From a virus (Duplodnaviria > Heunggongvirae > Uroviricota > Caudoviricetes), in the IMG/VR virus record IMGVR_UViG_2877285697_000006, positions 1-36,292 of that record: a DNA stretch of 36,292 nucleotides. The stretch is one strand, 5' to 3'. Position 1 is the stretch's first letter, and each line of letters opens with the position of its first letter. Positions 13,672-22,985 of the stretch are shown here, one piece after another. The notes under the pieces are model-generated. The model was given only the letters and a program-made list of their open reading frames with translations, was not told the origin of the DNA and did no database searches. Position numbers and translations under genes: made by a program.

Positions 13672-14013
13672 TTAACCGCTTCTGAGTTTCTCAAGCAAAG
13701 ATGGATCAAACATGTTCAGCATTGCCGCTTTACGTTCTTCTTCTTTCTTGCGTGCAATTTCTTCCAGTTCTTCTTTAGTTTTAAAGAGTTTTTCTTCTCT
13801 AATTAATTGGAATTGGCTAGGCTTGAGTTTGCGTGCAGTTTCGCGTGTCATTCCTTGCGACGTCATATACATGGAATATTGCAACATCGCATTCTGCATA
13901 TCATGAAACGCGGGGCTTTGTGGTTCTAAGTAGGTGTCGAAAATGTATAATTTCCAAAACAGAGTGATTGGCATATTATCCATTTCATCTTTACTAAGCC
14001 CCGATCTCATCAT
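13672..14013 (-). CDS. tail assembly chaperone T segment (likely made only as G-T fusion by -1 frameshift)
   Basis: No SD before its ATG; frame is -1 relative to G and open from 14058. Confidence 0.5.
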   Translation of the reverse strand: MMRSGLSKDEMDNMPITLFWKLYIFDTYLEPQSPAFHDMQNAMLQYSMYMTSQGMTRETARKLKPSQFQLIREEKLFKTKEELEEIARKKEEERKAAMLNMFDPSLLEKLRSG

Positions 14014-14042
14014 TTGCCGAAAGTAGAAATTCAGAAGCGGGT

Positions 14043-14351
14043 TTACTTTACCTCGTTTTCAATTACTACCGCATCTTGCATCAATGACGCTTGAGCAACC
14101 AAACCGATTAATTCACTGCGGACGTTAGTATACAGTGCCTTAACTTGTTCCATAGATTCAAATACCGGCTTACCGTCTTCATCTTCAATACAACGAAGAA
14201 TAGAACGTTCATCACGGTCATCTTTATCAGTATTGAAAACATGTTCGTTAAATTCTTTTACCGACATAGGGCGAGCATAGAAAGTAAATCCACCGATGGT
14301 CAGAGATTCACGTTTCGGAGAAAGAGCTTTCAGCATTTCATTAATATTCAT
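14043..14351 (-). CDS. tail assembly chaperone, gpG-like
   Basis: 102 aa, directly upstream of T segment and tape measure; conserved G/GT architecture. Confidence 0.55.
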   Translation of the reverse strand: MNINEMLKALSPKRESLTIGGFTFYARPMSVKEFNEHVFNTDKDDRDERSILRCIEDEDGKPVFESMEQVKALYTNVRSELIGLVAQASLMQDAVVIENEVK

Positions 14352-14393
14352 TCTTGTTTCCTCTTAAGTTAATTCGATATGTTTATTTAGAAT

Positions 14394-14900
14394 TTAAGAG
14401 ATTTTCAAAGTCTGCTTAGTGCCAGTCTTCTTAATGTTATTGAGGAAAGCAGCCGGAGGATTGCTTAACCAATAGTAATGAAAACCACTTTGCATACTGT
14501 TATAAGGAACAGTGACAGCCGCACCACCCAAATTAACCGTTATATTCCCCGCTCTGCCGTTCTGGAGATATACAGCCATAGTAGGAGTACCACCATTGAA
14601 TTGACCAACGATAACGCCAATTAGACGGCCTACGCCCACGTTTTCGGAGTTCTCCATTGACCCTTTACCGCGCATGTCAGTTACTGGATAGTTAGAAGCA
14701 GTTACACCCCAGTTATTACCCAATGAAGTAGACCACGCAGCAGTAGCTACAACCGTATCCATACCACGACCAGCCATTGCCGACATATTACGCGGAGCCG
14801 GAACTTTTAAAGCTGTTAATGCTTCTTTCATCCATCGCTTACCCGTCACCGATACAGCAGATGACCCGATCCAGCCAGGAACTTTAACGACATTTGCCAT
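14394..14900 (-). CDS. tail protein (major tail or tail terminator candidate)
   Basis: 168 aa, SD GGAG upstream, immediately upstream of G/T. Confidence 0.4.
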   Translation of the reverse strand: MANVVKVPGWIGSSAVSVTGKRWMKEALTALKVPAPRNMSAMAGRGMDTVVATAAWSTSLGNNWGVTASNYPVTDMRGKGSMENSENVGVGRLIGVIVGQFNGGTPTMAVYLQNGRAGNITVNLGGAAVTVPYNSMQSGFHYYWLSNPPAAFLNNIKKTGTKQTLKIS

Positions 14901-14914
14901 TTTGATTACTCCAA

Positions 14915-14943
14915 TAAAAAAGCCCCACCATTAAGGCAGGGCT
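14915..14943 (-). terminator. rho-independent terminator (AGCCCUGCC-uuaau-GGUGGGGCU + U6), shared with the MCP locus
   Basis: 9-bp stem including GU pairs, followed by TTTTTT on the minus strand; near-identical to 20862-20888. Confidence 0.6.
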
Positions 14944-14948
14944 TAAAA

Positions 14949-15074
14949 TTAATTCTTAGCCTTGCGGCCTCGTTTTGCTGTGGCTTTCGCCGTAACTTCT
15001 TCTACTTCTGGAATCACCACCGCTTCATGTTCTGGTAGTAGTTCCGGTTCTATTAAAGGAAGTTCTTCGTTAGT
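14949..15074 (-). other. 41-codon in-frame open extension after the UGA stop of the upstream gene (possible readthrough extension)
   Basis: Translates TNEELPLIEPELLPEHEAVVIPEVEEVTAKATAKRGRKAKN; no start codon; homologous to the extension after the MCP gene. Confidence 0.4.
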
Positions 15075-15545
15075 TCATCCAGCGGTAAACACTTCCTGTT
15101 TGATCGGCTTTCCATCCACCGCGAAGGTGAACTCTTTGGTTACAACTTCTTCATCGCCACCGTTCATAGCAACTTTAGAAATAAAGCCGTTGAAAGCGGT
15201 GCGAATACCAGTCTGCTTATCCGCTGATACGTAATACTCTACTTTAATCTGGATTCGAGTACCATCTTCGGCAGCTTTGATCAATTTTTCGTGGACACTA
15301 TCCCCGGGGATGTAATTCACCGTAAGAGTCAGATCAGGAACATTCAGTTTACCTACCAGCTTACGGTTGTACTGAGAAGAGAAGGATTTAACTTCTACAG
15401 TACCGCGCTCGATAGCAGTTTCCGGGAATCCGGCGCACTCTTTAATTTCTTCGTAACCGGAGTGATCGAGAGTGGTATTAGTGGTATCCGCGTGATAGAA
15501 CAGACTTACCAGACCACCAGTAAAAATATCATTAAATTGAGACAT
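15075..15545 (-). CDS. major tail (tube) protein candidate
   Basis: 156 aa, strong codon bias, SD AAGGGG; carries the same 3' module as the MCP gene. Confidence 0.45.
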   Translation of the reverse strand: MSQFNDIFTGGLVSLFYHADTTNTTLDHSGYEEIKECAGFPETAIERGTVEVKSFSSQYNRKLVGKLNVPDLTLTVNYIPGDSVHEKLIKAAEDGTRIQIKVEYYVSADKQTGIRTAFNGFISKVAMNGGDEEVVTKEFTFAVDGKPIKQEVFTAG

Positions 15546-15601
15546 AGAATTACCCCTTAATTAAAATTGTTATTACGGGGGAACTAGTCCCCCGACTTTT
15601 A

Positions 15602-18600
15602 TTATTTAGTTGCTTTGAGTTCGGCAATCTCTTTAGTCAATGCTTCAATCTTAGCTTGATATTTGGCGTCCATTTCCTGAATAGCTTTAATAATCAAGGC
15701 ATTAACAGCAGAGTTAGAAATAGTCTTAATTGCTTCCGGTTGTTCTGGATCTTCGGTGGATTGAATACCTACTGCTTCCGGCAATACTTCCTCCAGATCC
15801 TGAGCAATAATACCGACTTCGCGTTTAATCACTGTGTCATCGGAAAGAGATTTAACTTTATCGTATGTGTAGACTTTCAGGGAGTTTACTTTCTCTAATG
15901 CGCCGTCCTGTAATTCTTCCTTGTTAATCTTCAAACGGGAGTCAGAGCGAATGTAAACATCGTTAAAGCTACCGTTGCGATGAGCATTAAAATCACCGTC
16001 CATAGTAAATTCCCAGCGTGCTTGCTGCCCGTTGGCGTTATCACCTCGCATACGGATAATACCAGTACGCCAACCGTGAGTCGAACCGCTACCCGTCCAA
16101 CCAAACTCGAAGGACTGACGATAACCAACATCACCTAAGTTACTATAGCCAGCGATAATAGGGAAATATGCACCAGACTCCTTAATACTATCCATGTTAA
16201 CCAAGAATGGAGCACGGTCACGAGTTACATCAGAGATATCGGCATAACCGAAACCGTTTTTGTTGGCAACAACAACACGACGGTTAAATGTAACACCGCC
16301 TGACGTATGGCGAACAACATTAACATTATTAGCGTAGGTATCAAGAACACCATCACCGTTTTGTTTAAATCCAGTATCACTATCGCCTAAAACAATAGAA
16401 TTTCCACCCAATCCGTTAGCAACACCAACACCAAAACCGCTATTAAACTTAGGAATGGTTGCATCCTGACTAATAGACAGTTGGGGAGCGTTAATTTTAC
16501 CGTTTACGCTAAACTCGATTGCGGTAGTACCGGGACCGCCAGCACGCTGTGTGTAGAAATGCCAGCCGCTTTCATCTGCGCATTCTAATACTTGTTTACG
16601 AGTATCATTACCCCATGCACGAATATTGAAGCTAGATTGTCCGGTATTCTTACCCCATCGCATTTGACCAGCAACTTCAAGATCACCTAAGAAATATGCC
16701 TTTAGTCCACCTGTAGCCATATTACGTTCAGTGCTGAAATGTCGGCCTTTACTGTCTTCGAGATATAGAATGTTATCACGGGCATTATTGCTGTCGCCCC
16801 AATGGTTAAACCGGAAATAGTCTCTAGATTGTCCAGCACCAGCATCAAGTGTTAAATGTTGACCTTTGATGAAAGCGTTTCCAGCGAATCGAGCGGCTTT
16901 GCTTGCACGTTCTAACGTTAATGCGTCTCCGTTACCGTCACCGCCTAATTGAACGTTACCGGAAGTTAAATCATAAATGAATGGACGGTAAGTATTCCAA
17001 CCACCAAATTTATCATTTTCAGCCGTTGACAGAAGATAAACTTTAGCGGAGTCATTACGCCAGAATGCACCATAATTGCCGTAAATCATACGAAATGCGT
17101 TATGGTTGGCAGCAACATATTCGCCGTTAGTATAAACTACTTTAGTAGATCCAGTATTCAGAGAGATTTGACCGCTTTGTTCTAAGCCAATATTGTTAGT
17201 ACCGCTATCGTTATACATCTGCATAGCGTTAGTATCGGCATTTCCATAACCAACCCAACCTTGACGCTTATTTGCACCGTTGCGAGTGTCCCAATATTCC
17301 AGATAGTTACTTTGTCCGGTTGGTCGCTGCATACGAATAGTATTAGATCCGGCATCAAAAACAGCTTTACCAGTATACATAGTGCGTCCAGTGATTCGTA
17401 GAACTTCGCTAGAATCGGTAGTGCCAGTCGCTAAACGATATACGTTACCTTGAACAGTTTCATGCCAGATTGTTTCTGCGGCTTTACTACGGAATTTACG
17501 CAGATATTTTTTACCAGTACCTGAATCGTTATTCAAACTGACAATATCATATGTTCCCTGACCGTTATTATCAAACATCAACGTTCCGGCCTTGTTTTCG
17601 GTGTTGAACATTGTAATAACACGTCCATCAGTAACACCAGTAGACGGCTTAACGAGAGTTATTTCAGGAACGTCATGTACCGTCAGTGTAACATCGTTAG
17701 TTTTACCATATTCGACAATAACGTTATCGGTATAACGACCGTAGTTAACGTAGATATCGTAGTTATCACCGGAAGTATTAACCGCAAATACTTGATGAAT
17801 ATTTTTAGCATTTCGACGATAAGCCGCAATACTAACGCCTTTCGGGTTTCCGTTGCCGCTACGAATGACGATTTCTACAAAGTCAACCTGATCATAGGAG
17901 TTAACGTTATAACCGTTACCACCGAAGATACGAAGCATTACCATTCGACCAGTTTGTGGGATCGTGGCGGTTGCGATTTTGAAATAACCGCGAGTCGCAT
18001 CACCAGCCGGAACAGACATTTTAACGTTTTTAACAAACATCTTGTCAACTTCGGCTTTGGTATATGCGCCAATTTCAGCAGGAGTCGGTTTATCCCCTTC
18101 GTGATACATTTTATAGCTAAACGCTTTTTGTCCTTCTCTATCAAAACCATAGGTTTCAACACGAGATCCACCAGACGCATAACGGAAAGTAAATCCGCGA
18201 CCGTGCGCTTTACCGGAAGAGTGAGGAACGTTAAGAGTTAGATCCATGAGTCCATCTTGACCATTGGTACGGAAAGCACCGAAGTAATTAAGATCTCTCG
18301 CGGTTGAATCTTCCAGATAGTTACCAGTCTTGCTATACAAATACGCGCCGTGATAGGTCTTTGTGTTCTTCTTGATGTAAAGAGCATCGTTAGTACCTTC
18401 AATACCATCAATTCGCTTGTTGGCGGCTGCAATCGCTGCGTCGGCACTGGCCTTGTTATTTGCAACAGTTCGTTCAATGGCTGTCTTATTCGCAGAGACC
18501 GTACTAGTAAGACTGGTGATCTTCGTGTCCGCGTCTTTCTTATTATCGGAAACAGTTTTTTCGATCGCTGTCTTGTTCGCGGAGACAGTACCCGTTAAAC

Positions 18601-19210
18601 TAGAAATTTTATTATCAGCGTCGGTTTTATTCGCGGTAACAGTCTTAGTTAAATTGCTAACATTGGTGTTGGTAGCATCGACTCGCGCGTTAGTATTGGT
18701 ATTGTTGGTGTTAACGGTATTAGTAAGAGTAGTGATCTTACTGTCTGCATCTTTCTTATTGTTCGCGACGGTAGTCTCAATCGCTGATTTGTTCGATGCA
18801 ACGGTGTTAGTTAAGCTGGTGATCTTAGTATCAGCATCAGCTTTATTCGCCGTTACCGTCTTAGTTAAGTTGCTAACATTGGTGTTGGTAGCATCAATGC
18901 GCTTATTGGTTGCGGTGTCTTTAGTGGTAATAGTCTGATTCAGTTCAGATTTAGCAGCAGCCAGATTATTAGCGGCTTCTTGTTTGTTGGAAGAAATAAC
19001 ACGGTCAGTGTTGGTTTTATTCTGGTCTACTTTCGTGTTAAGTTCAGCGTGTTTTTCTGGAGAAACACTAATTTGGACTACGTTATTATTTTTGTCTTTG
19101 GTGTAAATCACATGGTCCGCCAGTTGTAAAGCGATCTCACCCTGTGATAATTGTTCCGGCGTTGGTTTTTTACCAGCCGTTTGTGTGCGTTTAAATTGGA
19201 TCGATTTCAT
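15602..19210 (-). CDS. tail fibre protein with C-terminal intramolecular chaperone (peptidase S74-type) domain
   Basis: 1202 aa; ~33-aa repeats (TKTVTANKxDADxKISSLT...); C-terminus SDSRLKINKEELQDGALEKVNSLKVYTYDK...GIIAQDLEEVLPEAV fits the auto-cleaving chaperone motif. Confidence 0.8.
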   Translation of the reverse strand: MKSIQFKRTQTAGKKPTPEQLSQGEIALQLADHVIYTKDKNNNVVQISVSPEKHAELNTKVDQNKTNTDRVISSNKQEAANNLAAAKSELNQTITTKDTATNKRIDATNTNVSNLTKTVTANKADADTKITSLTNTVASNKSAIETTVANNKKDADSKITTLTNTVNTNNTNTNARVDATNTNVSNLTKTVTANKTDADNKISSLTGTVSANKTAIEKTVSDNKKDADTKITSLTSTVSANKTAIERTVANNKASADAAIAAANKRIDGIEGTNDALYIKKNTKTYHGAYLYSKTGNYLEDSTARDLNYFGAFRTNGQDGLMDLTLNVPHSSGKAHGRGFTFRYASGGSRVETYGFDREGQKAFSYKMYHEGDKPTPAEIGAYTKAEVDKMFVKNVKMSVPAGDATRGYFKIATATIPQTGRMVMLRIFGGNGYNVNSYDQVDFVEIVIRSGNGNPKGVSIAAYRRNAKNIHQVFAVNTSGDNYDIYVNYGRYTDNVIVEYGKTNDVTLTVHDVPEITLVKPSTGVTDGRVITMFNTENKAGTLMFDNNGQGTYDIVSLNNDSGTGKKYLRKFRSKAAETIWHETVQGNVYRLATGTTDSSEVLRITGRTMYTGKAVFDAGSNTIRMQRPTGQSNYLEYWDTRNGANKRQGWVGYGNADTNAMQMYNDSGTNNIGLEQSGQISLNTGSTKVVYTNGEYVAANHNAFRMIYGNYGAFWRNDSAKVYLLSTAENDKFGGWNTYRPFIYDLTSGNVQLGGDGNGDALTLERASKAARFAGNAFIKGQHLTLDAGAGQSRDYFRFNHWGDSNNARDNILYLEDSKGRHFSTERNMATGGLKAYFLGDLEVAGQMRWGKNTGQSSFNIRAWGNDTRKQVLECADESGWHFYTQRAGGPGTTAIEFSVNGKINAPQLSISQDATIPKFNSGFGVGVANGLGGNSIVLGDSDTGFKQNGDGVLDTYANNVNVVRHTSGGVTFNRRVVVANKNGFGYADISDVTRDRAPFLVNMDSIKESGAYFPIIAGYSNLGDVGYRQSFEFGWTGSGSTHGWRTGIIRMRGDNANGQQARWEFTMDGDFNAHRNGSFNDVYIRSDSRLKINKEELQDGALEKVNSLKVYTYDKVKSLSDDTVIKREVGIIAQDLEEVLPEAVGIQSTEDPEQPEAIKTISNSAVNALIIKAIQEMDAKYQAKIEALTKEIAELKATK
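18430..18960. repeat. tandem ~99-bp DNA repeats inside the tail fibre gene
   Basis: Repeated units visible on the DNA; produces low-complexity antisense ORFs. Confidence 0.6.
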
Positions 19211-20831: not shown

Positions 20832-20861
20832 AGTTACCCCCTTTATGGAGTATTTACATAC

Positions 20862-20888
20862 AAAAAAGCCCCACCGTTAGGCAGGGCT
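20862..20888 (-). terminator. rho-independent terminator after the MCP locus (same hairpin as 14915-14943)
   Basis: AGCCCUGCC-uaac-GGUGGGGCU followed by U6 on the minus strand. Confidence 0.6.
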
Positions 20889-20893
20889 AATTA

Positions 20894-20980
20894 TTATTTT
20901 GCTTTCGGTGGACGTCCCACCTTTTTAGCTGTGGCTTTCGCCGTAATCACCGGAATTTCTTCCGGCGATTCTTCGTTATT
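20894..20980 (-). other. 28-codon in-frame open extension after the MCP UGA stop (possible readthrough extension)
   Basis: Translates NNEESPEEIPVITAKATAKKVGRPPKAK; contains the 20-nt segment ACGGCGAAAGCCACAGC(A/T)AAA shared with 14949-15074. Confidence 0.4.
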
Positions 20981-21940
20981 TCATTCGCCGATCTGGAGAA
21001 CTTTAAGAGCTTCCGGCTGTACTACAGTGAAGTCAATGTCCAGCCAGATTCTAGGCACGATCGCAGACTGGGCGCGGTACGTTGAATCGTCCAGATCTAG
21101 CTCAAGACCGCCCCACTCACCGATCATGATGCCGCTGTAATCGCCCAGCACGATCGTGTCAGCTGGAATAACACCGGAAGTAATTACATCGTAACCAGCC
21201 AGTTTGCCGTTTTCGATGATATAACCGGAAACGCCGTTATCTTTCAGGGTAGATTCCAGTTCAGCAGCAGTTGCACCGCTCATTGCAAACTTGATGGACT
21301 GTGCCGGAACGCCAGCGTCCGTAAGCTGAGCAATCTCCTTGAGGAAGTCTTTGTAAGAGAAAGCGGCTTTCTTAGTAACGCGACCACCGTCTACCAGTTG
21401 CTTAACCAGACCTTTCGGACCGCGCTCGTTGTCTTTGTCAGACAGAATCAGTTGTTCCAGTTTGATCCGAACAGATTTGTTAATGTGATCAGTGATCAGG
21501 GTAGCGATGCCCGGAACGGTTTTGAGGCTAGCCCTAGAAATTGGGTTCCCGCCTGCGAAAGTTTTCGGAGCCATTTTCACGTTTTCAAAGCTAGCCTTCG
21601 ATTCGGGGGCACTTCCATTTTCATCAACAAAACCAAAGGCTTCGACGCTGGAAGCAGTCATTTTTGGTACTGCAATCGGGCTATTCAGACCAGACAGAAC
21701 AGTCACACCCAGACGACCCAGAACAGACTGTGGAAGCAGCATTTCAACATAGGATTCGGTCAGCAGTTTTTCGTCGGTTACAGCTTCCAGAGTAGCTTTG
21801 GTGTTACCAGCAGAAGCAGCACGCAGAGCAGCAGCCGGAACGAATACAGAGCCACCACGAGCAGCACCGACCACGCTGCATTGCAGCACCAGCAGCCATT
21901 GCGGAATATTCAGCTTCATGAGCACCCAGAGTTTCACCAT
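20981..21940 (-). CDS. major capsid protein (HK97 fold); N-terminus probably supplied by the upstream protease-scaffold ORF
   Basis: 319-aa ORF with strong codon bias and capsid-like sequence; no SD before its ATG; MCP frame has a TGA immediately upstream. Confidence 0.75.
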   Translation of the reverse strand: MVKLWVLMKLNIPQWLLVLQCSVVGAARGGSVFVPAAALRAASAGNTKATLEAVTDEKLLTESYVEMLLPQSVLGRLGVTVLSGLNSPIAVPKMTASSVEAFGFVDENGSAPESKASFENVKMAPKTFAGGNPISRASLKTVPGIATLITDHINKSVRIKLEQLILSDKDNERGPKGLVKQLVDGGRVTKKAAFSYKDFLKEIAQLTDAGVPAQSIKFAMSGATAAELESTLKDNGVSGYIIENGKLAGYDVITSGVIPADTIVLGDYSGIMIGEWGGLELDLDDSTYRAQSAIVPRIWLDIDFTVVQPEALKVLQIGE

Positions 21941-22985
21941 CGATCAGGGAGCGGAATACGTTGTTCAGGTCAAAAGTTTTTTCCATGATTTGTTCCTTAT
22001 TAATTTGTTCGTTATTACGTTGAGCATTGATAATGTTATTTAGTGCCTTAGTGCGGAATGCTTCCGGCGTCATGTCTTTAACTGCCAATGCGCGTTTTAA
22101 TTCTTCGTCGTCAATATTTAGTTCCCGCGCGATCTCGCGAATTTCTAATTCGTCTTCTTCGGAACGTTCAGCCACTTCTTCGATTTTTTCTTCTTCAACC
22201 GGAGCGGCTTCACGTTCTTCTTTTACTTCTTCTGCTTCCCGAACAGTTGAACTATCATCATCAACACTTTCAGGATGTTCAGCGACTTTTCCGTCTTCGA
22301 GATTTTCATTTTCTTCATTCTCTTCAACTTGGCGCTCTTGAGTTTCTTCAACTTTCGGTTCTTTATTTTCTTCTACCGGAGTTTCTTCAACCTGAGCGGG
22401 TTCTTGTTCTTCTTTGATTTCTTCGATTTGTTCTTTAGTCATATCGCGTTTAGCCTCCAAATTAACTGTGATAGTATTTAGAGAGCGATTTAAACCGACC
22501 GTATCGTCAGCAGGAACGGTAACGAAACTTAATTCGTATGGTGCCCACTTAGTAACAATCAATTGCCCTTTGGCGTAATCGATGTGATATTCTTTAATGT
22601 CATAGCCGACAGAAATTTTTTCCATCGTACCTTCAATGACTTTATTACGAACATCATTAGCCAAAGTGCCATGTTTAGAGAATTTAACCAGAGCACGGCC
22701 TACGTTATCCGCATCGATTCGAGCGTCGCAGACTACACCTAAATGATTATCGAAATTATGATTGAACAGCAACGGAGCGTTATTATTCAGACGAGACAGA
22801 TCAACCGCTTCCGGTGTATGTACCAGAATTTCATCTAATACCACCATTTCTTGATTTTGCTCATCCCAAAATTGGCGCTGATAAGGCTGTGTACTTGAGA
22901 AAGCAATTTCAAATTCGTATTGATCGTTATGCCCTTCGTTAATAACTCCACCGTAACCGTTAAGATCGCGGCGAAATTTAAGCAT
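21804..22985 (-). CDS. prohead protease (HK97 S78-type) fused to acidic coiled-coil scaffold domain
   Basis: N-terminal ~180 aa with LLFNHNFDNHLG-type protease motifs, then glutamate-rich region; 3' end (RCCSWWLCIRSGCCSACCFCW) looks like out-of-frame translation of the MCP start. Confidence 0.7.
   Translation of the reverse strand: MLKFRRDLNGYGGVINEGHNDQYEFEIAFSSTQPYQRQFWDEQNQEMVVLDEILVHTPEAVDLSRLNNNAPLLFNHNFDNHLGVVCDARIDADNVGRALVKFSKHGTLANDVRNKVIEGTMEKISVGYDIKEYHIDYAKGQLIVTKWAPYELSFVTVPADDTVGLNRSLNTITVNLEAKRDMTKEQIEEIKEEQEPAQVEETPVEENKEPKVEETQERQVEENEENENLEDGKVAEHPESVDDDSSTVREAEEVKEEREAAPVEEEKIEEVAERSEEDELEIREIARELNIDDEELKRALAVKDMTPEAFRTKALNNIINAQRNNEQINKEQIMEKTFDLNNVFRSLIDGETLGAHEAEYSAMAAGAAMQRGRCCSWWLCIRSGCCSACCFCW

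Follow-up and report, generated by a model that had tools for sequence, protein, structure and literature searches.

A candidate stop-codon readthrough cassette that follows the capsid gene and the tail tube gene of an Escherichia coli prophage

The window analysed here, a stretch of 36,292 nucleotides (nt) covering positions 1 to 36,292 of the IMG/VR virus record IMGVR_UViG_2877285697_000006 (Duplodnaviria; Heunggongvirae; Uroviricota; Caudoviricetes), is the late region of an E. coli prophage. Two of its structural genes, those for the major capsid protein and the tail tube protein, end in a UGA codon followed by A, and behind each UGA lie an in-frame extension, a structured RNA segment and an intrinsic terminator. 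On the strength of the sequence comparisons described below, we regard it as fairly probable that this cassette is a programmed readthrough signal that is used twice in the same prophage. A leaky stop, a 10-nt spacer, a covarying stem and a conserved open reading frame (ORF) in frame with the upstream gene are here read together as such a signal. An earlier note, made from the letters of the window, had proposed that the UGA of the tube gene is subject to programmed readthrough, which would yield a minor subunit with an extended C-terminus. The proposal is supported by the comparison of relatives, in which the UGA-A is invariant, the frame is kept, insertions and deletions come in threes and no start codon is conserved.

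The two cassettes and their relatives

The genes and cassettes discussed here lie on the minus strand of the window. The tail tube gene (15078..15545, 156 codons) matches phrog_158, 'major tail protein' (E=6.9e-22), and its product scores slightly below the cut-offs of the Pfam families Phage_TTP_11 and Phage_TTP_12 (PF16460, PF16461); the PGAP name for its orthologue is 'phage tail tube protein'. The local gene order, with the tube gene followed by an adhesin gene, a G-like gene, a T-like gene and the tape measure gene, is that of a lambda-like siphophage tail tube. The gene ends in GCT GGA TGA (stop codon at 15075..15077), and the next codon is ACT, so that the mRNA reads UGA-ACU. The layout that the earlier note had described downstream of this stop was recovered in full. 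The frame stays open for 41 codons (14952..15074), the translation of which is TNEELPLIEPELLPEHEAVVIPEVEEVTAKATAKRGRKAKN, up to a TAA at 14949..14951. The extension starts as an acidic, proline-rich linker, continues through VTAKATAK (the TAKATAK of the note) and finishes in the basic tip KRGRKAKN. Its stop codon is placed 4 nt ahead of the stem of an intrinsic terminator (14914..14944), which consists of a hairpin at 14944..14920 with 10 pairs, six of them GC, and a T6 tract at 14919..14914.

A matching module behind the capsid gene, also claimed in the note, is indeed present. The major capsid protein ORF (20984..21940) was identified by matches to Pfam Phage_capsid (E=2e-25), to phrog_617 and to the major capsid protein in PDB 8gta (E=2e-27). 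Its stop codon is a TGA at 20981..20983, followed by AAT, and the in-frame extension NNEESPEEIPVITAKATAKKVGRPPKAK (20897..20980, 28 codons; fold z = -5.58) leads to the tandem stops TAA TAA (20896..20891). These stops and the intrinsic terminator behind them (hairpin 20888..20867, then T6) together occupy 20861..20896, and the terminator is near-identical to that of the tube cassette. An 18-mer common to the capsid and tube cassettes, GCGAAAGCCACAGCWAAA, occurs exactly twice in the window, against 0.05 copies expected by chance.

In the window a protease-scaffold-capsid fusion is broken in two by a 1-nt insertion, and the capsid ORF represents the C-terminal portion of the fusion. The insertion, relative to E. 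coli CE0007a, is the extra G in GCAGCGTGGTC[G]GTGCTGCTCG at about 21868-21879 of the minus strand. It results in two ORFs, 21804..22985 and 20981..21940, with only 320 codons open upstream of the capsid stop. In the related loci the protease-scaffold-capsid gene is a single continuous ORF of 654-691 codons in 34 cases out of 34. The split in the window is either a sequencing error or the mark of a defective prophage.

Stop usage in the window is uneven. Among its 36 candidate genes, 32 end in TAA and two in TAG; the two that end in TGA are the capsid and tube genes, each with A as the next nucleotide. UGA is the leakiest of the stop codons, and bacterial genes with high expression favour UAA. 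Strikingly, the leaky UGA-A is confined to the two genes of the phage for which the heaviest translation is expected. In E. coli, tRNA-Trp misreads UGA most readily when the next nucleotide is A (PMC5289835, citing Engelberg-Kulka 1981). Readthrough of UGA in a reporter in E. coli K-12 was about 2% at 37 °C and 4% at 25 °C, and it varies with temperature, with cAMP and with the level of tRNA-Trp (PMC10570021). The hexamer at the tube stop, UGA-ACU, is also found in the Qβ-group record NC_001890, where the coat gene ends in UAC UGA ACU and a proline-rich linker follows; readthrough of that stop is about 5% (record note; PMC7026636).

Relatives of the cassettes were collected from IMG/VR loci, from one annotated E. 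coli genome and by a metagenome scan, and further ones were reached through protein homologues in Salmonella, Edwardsiella, Providencia and one environmental contig. The set comprises 77 cassettes from E. coli, Salmonella, Providencia and metagenomes, 46 behind capsid genes (29 unique) and 31 behind tube genes (18 unique), with 47 unique sequences in total. TGA with A in the +4 position is present in every one of them, 46 of 46 behind capsid genes and 31 of 31 behind tube genes. The codon before the TGA varies (GAA, GAC, GAG, GAT or GCG; GGA, GGT, TCT or GCT), and the codon after it is ACT or AAT. Extensions of capsid genes are 25, 28, 33, 42, 43, 44 or 45 codons long and those of tube genes 36, 39, 40 or 41, and all 77 are in frame with the upstream gene. 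Types of capsid C-terminus and types of extension occur in mixed combinations with the frame kept, a pattern that points to recombination. The capsid extensions finish in TAATAA in 40 of 46 cases, and the intrinsic terminator is kept in all cassettes. Homologous genes that have no extension end in TAA, with the terminator directly after the stop. Tube genes of this kind were found in a second E. coli group (L052-L063), in Salmonella, Providencia and Edwardsiella tarda and in the loci L065, L066 and L069; the last two of these loci also have capsid genes of this kind.

The extensions carry a coding signal. Distinct internal gap blocks were counted in a nucleotide alignment that is blind to codons. 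Within the extensions all nine blocks are multiples of three (48, 42, 24, 3, 9, 3 and 3 nt in capsid cassettes; 6 and 15 nt in tube cassettes), whereas eight of the nine blocks in the 75 nt after the extension stop, a non-coding control made up of the terminator loop, the U tract and the spacer, are not. Frame 0 is free of stops in the 47 unique sequences, whereas each of the other two frames has several stops in every variant. ATG, GTG and TTG are absent from the first 10 codons in 43 of the 45 unique peptides, and two peptides have none of them anywhere. The position of possible start codons shifts between variants (codons 5, 11, 12, 15 and 17-20), and the tube indels lie upstream of the first of them. 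Coding constraint thus begins with the first codon past the TGA, which leaves readthrough as the route into the ORF.

An acidic-then-basic charge pattern is common to all 45 unique peptides. Their first part has 4-9 acidic residues, 2-6 prolines and at most one basic residue, and the last 12-15 residues include 6-7 lysines or arginines and at most one acidic residue. The tips are of several types, VTAKATAK plus KRGRKAKN, KKVGRPPKAK and similar ones. Pfam and PHROG searches with the extension peptides revealed no domain, the only match being a sub-threshold one to AT_hook (PF02178). This weak match, at 14.3-14.7 bits against a cut-off of 17.4, involves the tips KKVGRPPKAK and KKAGRPPKAKE (20897..20926 in the window, and relatives); neither the tube tip KRGRKAKN nor the KKQRKTKE tips give it. 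In distant relatives, short basic tails are fused to the proteins without an intervening stop. They were seen in tube proteins (…VIPEAVAAKEK in E. tarda, …GSRK and …SARK), with the related tail of the E. tarda tube protein fused directly (…MNVIPEAVAAKEK), and in capsid proteins of L066 and L069 (…KATAAGK and …KAKAPAGK). Such direct fusions suggest that the tip itself matters.

RNA structure within the extensions

The folds of all variants are significantly more stable than those of dinucleotide shuffles (z = -5.6, -4.8, -3.0, -5.5, -2.35, -3.0 and -2.36). In the minimum free energy (MFE) fold of 24 of the 47 unique sequences, exactly 13 nt, the UGA and 10 more, are unpaired before the stem begins; in the remaining ones a weak outer helix is added on top. 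The closing stem is formed by nt +14..+19, which pair with the 6 nt just 5' of an invariant mini hairpin, GGC-GAAA-GCC, and it encloses a domain of 26-74 nt that is non-homologous between cassette types.

The closing stem is supported by covariation. Its two arms occur in 11 combinations among the unique sequences (for example AACTTC/GAAGTT, AACAAC/GTTGTT, AACCTT/GAGGTT, AATCGC/GTGATT, AATTGC/GTAGTT and AGTTGC/GTAGCT), and 91.5% of the positions are paired in register, as opposed to 21-61% when one arm is slid by 1-3 nt. For the tube alignment (15 sequences) a four-helix structure is 93.0% paired and the closing helix alone 93.9%, as opposed to 25-46% in slid registers, and two pairs are changed on both sides. 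Some of the compensatory changes alter the encoded amino acids on both sides, with Leu->Gln at the 5' arm accompanied by Glu->Val at the 3' arm, which indicates selection at the RNA level. The inner hairpins covary as well, CUUCCCCC/GGGGGAAG in E. coli corresponding to CUCUCCCC/GGGGAGAG in Salmonella, and GGUGG/CCACC to GGCGG/CCGCC. In the mini hairpin, pairing is kept as GGU/GCC (L040) or GGA/UCC (Providencia) in place of GGC/GCC. Rfam scans at the gathering threshold and with permissive settings matched the cassette RNA to no family.

In the tube cassette of the window the stem-loop domain (14994..15064; MFE fold z = -2.35) begins 10 nt past the UGA. Its closing helix pairs 15064..15054 with 15004..14994, and an inner helix pairs 15045..15034 with 15021..15010. 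It is followed by the mini hairpin GGC-GAAA-GCC (14982..14991), which has a GNRA tetraloop and is part of the invariant 15-mer ACGGCGAAAGCCACA, and, in the codons of the basic tip, by another hairpin with a GNRA tetraloop, GGCC-GCAA-GGCU (14958..14969). Pair 109/120 of this tip hairpin is G-U in eight sequences of the tube alignment and A-U in seven. Three hairpins form in the capsid extension of the window: one of 11 base pairs capped by a GAAA loop (20970..20945), the mini hairpin GGC-GAAA-GCC (20942..20933) and one more at 20929..20901. A compensatory change from C-G to U-A distinguishes this capsid cassette from that of the related locus L034.

The 15-mer ACGGCGAAAGCCACA, which contains the mini hairpin, recurs in many unrelated environmental phage contigs of IMG/VR (L071, L073, L078, L080, L081, L084, L099, L100, L103, L119, L130 and L135). 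There it is placed 10-25 nt ahead of a ribosome-binding site and an ATG, and the flanks differ. In those contigs it may be a separate hairpin element of the 5' untranslated region (UTR).

Proposed mechanism and alternative explanations

In the mechanism that we propose, most ribosomes would terminate at the weak UGA-A. A few per cent would instead insert an amino acid, most likely tryptophan by way of tRNA-Trp, stay in frame and translate a further 28-45 codons up to a strong stop (TAA, usually TAA TAA) just ahead of the intrinsic terminator. A minority of the capsid and tube subunits would in this way gain a flexible, acidic, proline-rich linker with a tip rich in lysine and arginine. The onset of the stem 10 nt past the UGA would place it at the mRNA entrance of the ribosome when the UGA is in the A site, and the stem-loop is probably one component of the signal that determines how often readthrough takes place. 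From the comparison of cassettes we infer that the UGA is read through and that selection maintains this, that tryptophan is the inserted residue and that the stem stimulates the event.

As for the role of the extension, we picture the added peptide as displayed on the outside of both head and tail, with its tip acting in weak adhesion or in the binding of polyanions. C-terminal additions to T7 10B and to λ gpV are displayed on the outside of the particle, and surface display here would follow these examples. A sequence search for a solved structure of a relative of the tube protein found none, and for the capsid relative 8gta the position of the capsid C-terminus is not given in the R4C paper. 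The most economical guess at a role for the peptide is weak binding to polyanionic surfaces, such as lipopolysaccharide, capsule or DNA, in analogy to the immunoglobulin (Ig)-like domains that are added by frameshifting in other phages (PMC5009743).

Several points weigh against programmed readthrough. The support for it is comparative throughout, and many of the 77 cassettes are closely related, so that the counts overstate the number of independent observations. We know of no precedent in bacteria for readthrough that is stimulated by RNA structure, apart from selenocysteine insertion directed by the selenocysteine insertion sequence (SECIS). The constraint on the amino acids of the extension appears weak, with ratios of non-synonymous to synonymous polymorphism (pN/pS) of 0.4-0.7 (0.42 for tube and 0.71 for capsid extensions), values that are inflated because the RNA structure constrains synonymous sites and that are given little weight here. 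In the best-conserved stretch, GTTACGGCGAAAGCCACA, it is the nucleotides that are kept, even at third codon positions, which fits selection on the RNA as well as selection on the peptide. The 1-nt frameshift in the capsid gene of the window means that this copy may not make virions, and among the relatives no variant was found in which a sense codon replaces the TGA.

Also on that side of the balance is a lineage of E. tarda (L027, L028 and L064). Its capsid gene ends in TGA-T (stop at 3787-3789 of L027), and a tail-like ORF, MIPTGREEVSVKSGRKPKTDN, occupies the -1 frame; it begins with a GTG, which shares nucleotides with the capsid stop (GTGA). In-frame readthrough is thus not universal in the wider family. 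The earlier note had suggested a search for homologues in which the frame of the extension is broken. No such homologue was found in E. coli, Salmonella or Providencia, and the one E. tarda lineage, with its -1 frame, does break it. This lineage is the only clear exception to the in-frame rule, and its extension may have decayed or may be reached by another route.

Searches for further variants gave the following. A 198-amino-acid fused protein in the database (P0001), considered as a sense-codon variant, was rejected as a gene-calling artefact, its own DNA carrying the TGA. A protein search for sense-codon variants of the capsid returned only three partial capsids, none of which reaches the extension. 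A profile search of genome contigs with the tail-tube alignment gave no match, and an exact 15-mer scan of viral contigs gave mostly unrelated matches in other contexts.

A conserved RNA element had been named in the earlier note as the alternative to readthrough. The element is real, being the covarying stem-loop 10 nt past the stop, and it does not exclude readthrough. Taken as the whole explanation, it would be a structured 3' UTR, with GNRA-capped hairpins and a terminator, that stabilises or processes abundant mRNAs; the open frame would then be incidental and any readthrough product noise. The strong covariation of the helices, the excess stability of the folds over shuffles, the paired L->Q and E->V changes and the nucleotide-level conservation of the core, third codon positions included, would all agree with it, as would the position of the cassette after the two most highly expressed late genes, with a strong terminator at its end. 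What it leaves unexplained is why indels come in threes inside the extension (nine of nine) but not downstream of it (eight of nine not in threes), why frame 0 of the 47 unique sequences is free of stops whereas the other frames are rich in them, why TGA-A is constant in a phage that otherwise uses TAA, and why the extension ends in tandem TAA TAA. To this account we assign a small but real chance. The chance is also small, in our estimate, for a transcription switch, in which a lead ribosome that has read through masks the 5' arm of the terminator, so that transcription runs on into the low-copy genes downstream, and ribosomes stopped at the UGA leave the terminator free. The distance between the extension stop and the terminator stem is indeed 4-6 nt in almost every variant, with one reaching 8 nt; the constraint on the peptide is weak though the frame stays open; the cassettes mark the points at which expression has to fall, between the capsid and the head completion genes and between the tube gene and the genes for adhesin and chaperones; and there are weak Rfam resemblances, far under threshold, to leader-peptide attenuators. 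Against such a switch, no antiterminator pairing is predicted and the terminator folds independently in the MFE folds of nine variants; only the GRPP type of tip repeats the 3' arm of the terminator. Stops near terminators are also found in the relatives without an extension, so that the spacing is not special. A switch would also not need the conserved acidic-then-basic composition of the 45 peptides, and the short basic tails fused directly in relatives point to a function of the peptide.

The start-codon data bear on the possibility that the extension is a separate small peptide gene, translated unfused by its own initiation or by re-initiation after the UGA. The homologous E. tarda ORF in another frame, whose GTG overlaps the capsid stop, is a classic arrangement for translational coupling, and most variants hold an in-frame GTG or TTG somewhere; the possible starts, however, vary in position, two variants lack a canonical start altogether, and indels in threes and conserved residues begin upstream of the possible starts, at the first codon past the TGA. 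Independent initiation would require neither a shared frame nor a TGA stop, and we consider a separate gene very unlikely. Lower still do we rate a relic, that is, a nonsense mutation in a once longer C-terminus whose tail is now decaying. Some distant relatives do carry short basic tails without a stop, but decay would bring stops and frameshifts, and the tail is intact in 77 cassettes from three genera and two genes, in which the TGA never reverts or becomes TAA. Insertion of selenocysteine at the UGA, with the downstream hairpin as a bacterial SECIS, is to us the least credible explanation of all. The hairpin does fall within a loose SECIS distance window, its apical loop being about 20-35 nt past the UGA, and the loops start with G. 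The apical hairpins nevertheless differ by cassette type (a GAAA tetraloop, a GAUUU pentaloop or a 12-nt loop), with only the basal helix conserved, and so provide no conserved loop for SelB binding. Rfam gave no match, and neither a suppressor tRNA nor a tRNA-Sec was found in the window or in the related loci.

Prophage context and relation to known systems

The region 14300-15700 of the window, which holds the tube gene, its cassette and the flanks, has a match in 39 of 5426 complete E. coli genomes, at 80-99% identity. A near-identity search of isolated phages returned a fragment of a T4-like fibre gene as the sole match and no close isolate; the closest relative of the capsid protein in an isolated phage is 40% identical. 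On the minus strand the genes for the terminase, a lambda-type portal, the protease-scaffold-capsid fusion, head completion and a tube-like protein of 277 amino acids are followed by those for a gp37-like fibre of 1202 amino acids, the 156-amino-acid tail tube protein, a gp38-like adhesin, G- and T-like chaperones, the tape measure protein and tip proteins. This places the tube gene, together with its cassette, between the long fibre gene (15602..19210) and the adhesin gene (14394..14900), an unusual order; in E. tarda the fibre gene is next to the gp38 gene, and the tube gene comes after both.

The C-terminal end of the fibre gene product is S74 chaperone-like. A stretch of 479 nt in the fibre gene is 90% identical to the T4-like phage Cognac, which suggests a recent exchange of host-range modules, and at 18498..18929 the gene contains a tandem 216-nt repeat in two copies that are 74% identical. 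Immediately ahead of the tape measure gene are the ORFs of the tail assembly chaperones, G-like (14043..14351) and T-like (13672..14013), and their site (13672..14351) is the expected place of the conserved -1 G/T frameshift of long-tailed phages. ARAGORN reports 91-nt 'tRNA' genes with varying anticodons (Gln, Glu, Lys) in related loci (L034, L035, L036, L039, L046, L050, L058, L060, L062 and L063, at about 4.4-5.4 kb) and none in the window. They lie inside a coding region, on the strand opposite to the late genes, and are probably false positives.

Minor long forms of tailed-phage proteins have so far been products of frameshifting, and readthrough would be another route to them. The cassette, at about 140 nt, is a candidate for a compact natural readthrough signal of bacteria that comes with its own natural variants and compensatory mutants. 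Products of this kind are missed by annotation pipelines: in the annotated E. coli relative, PGAP leaves both extensions unannotated, with nothing in the gap that either the capsid or the tube cassette occupies. If the rate of readthrough depends on host physiology, the composition of the virion would vary with the state of the host. The cassette also raises the question of what role a common peptide with an acidic linker and a basic tip has on both head and tail of a prophage of E. coli, Salmonella and Providencia.

Programmed readthrough in bacteria is, to our knowledge, essentially confined to Qβ-like RNA phages and a few isolated cases, and our literature searches on readthrough in capsid or tail genes of tailed phages found no report. 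The coat/A1 system of Qβ-type phages (Qubevirus) resembles the present one in that a structural gene of an E. coli virus has a single leaky UGA, followed by ACU (NC_001890) and by a proline-rich linker in frame. There, a few per cent of the subunits are a minor, C-terminally extended virion protein, with tRNA-Trp as the presumed decoder, and we propose the same here. The two systems differ in that Qβ is a single-stranded RNA phage whose folded extension of about 195 amino acids is needed for infectivity, whereas the present one is a tailed double-stranded DNA prophage with low-complexity extensions of 28-45 amino acids. Unlike in Qβ, one cassette here serves two genes, has a covarying stem-loop 10 nt downstream of the stop and ends in an intrinsic terminator.

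Long forms of capsid or tail proteins that arise by frameshifting are known from T7 (10A/10B), T3, Lactobacillus phage A2, the Listeria phages A118, A500 and PSA (cps and tsh) and SPP1 (gp17.1*). T7 10B, like the extensions here, ends just before a terminator, Tφ. In the Listeria phages the capsid and the tail gene are both affected, as they are here (PMC5009743). Those systems shift by -1 or +1 at slippery sites and mostly add Ig-like or FN3 domains, whereas the present extensions are in frame 0, have no slippery heptamer and match no domain, and their +1 and +2 frames are rich in stops.

Stem-loops that stimulate readthrough have been described for eukaryotic viruses and Drosophila, with a spacer of 7-12 nt, a stem of 10-14 base pairs and a 'loop' of about 100-270 nt (Firth et al. 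2011, PMC3159437). The examples include alphaviruses, tobra-, furo- and pecluviruses and Drosophila genes, and the structure has been suggested to act at the mRNA entrance of the ribosome, with the stop codon in the A site (PMC3159437). Like the cassette, these signals combine a UGA, a spacer and a stem supported by compensatory changes inside the readthrough ORF; the spacer here is 10 nt and the domain 26-74 nt. They differ in operating on eukaryotic ribosomes, usually with C at +4 or in a CGG or CUA context, whereas the cassette has a bacterial host and a UGA-A context, and its stem is proposed to act from sequence comparison. With the leader-peptide attenuators (trp, phe, his) the cassette has in common that a short ORF ends beside an intrinsic terminator, where the position of a ribosome could affect termination. 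The attenuators, however, have their own start codon and an antiterminator, whereas entry here would be by readthrough from a long gene, and no antiterminator is predicted.

Tentatively, and with rather less confidence than we have in readthrough as such, we suggest that the cassette could be the first prokaryotic case, outside selenocysteine, of readthrough tuned by RNA structure, and the first in which long forms of tailed-phage proteins are made by readthrough. It would be a portable unit (UGA-A, a 10-nt spacer, a covarying stem-loop, an ORF for linker and basic tip, TAATAA and a terminator) placed behind both genes, through which the same charged tip would be shown by a small, constant share of the subunits of both head and tail, with a possible coupling to terminator bypass that would help to set the stoichiometry of the late genes. 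In its action the cassette is like the readthrough of Qβ A1 and in its purpose like the long forms made by frameshifting, and it is a member of neither group.

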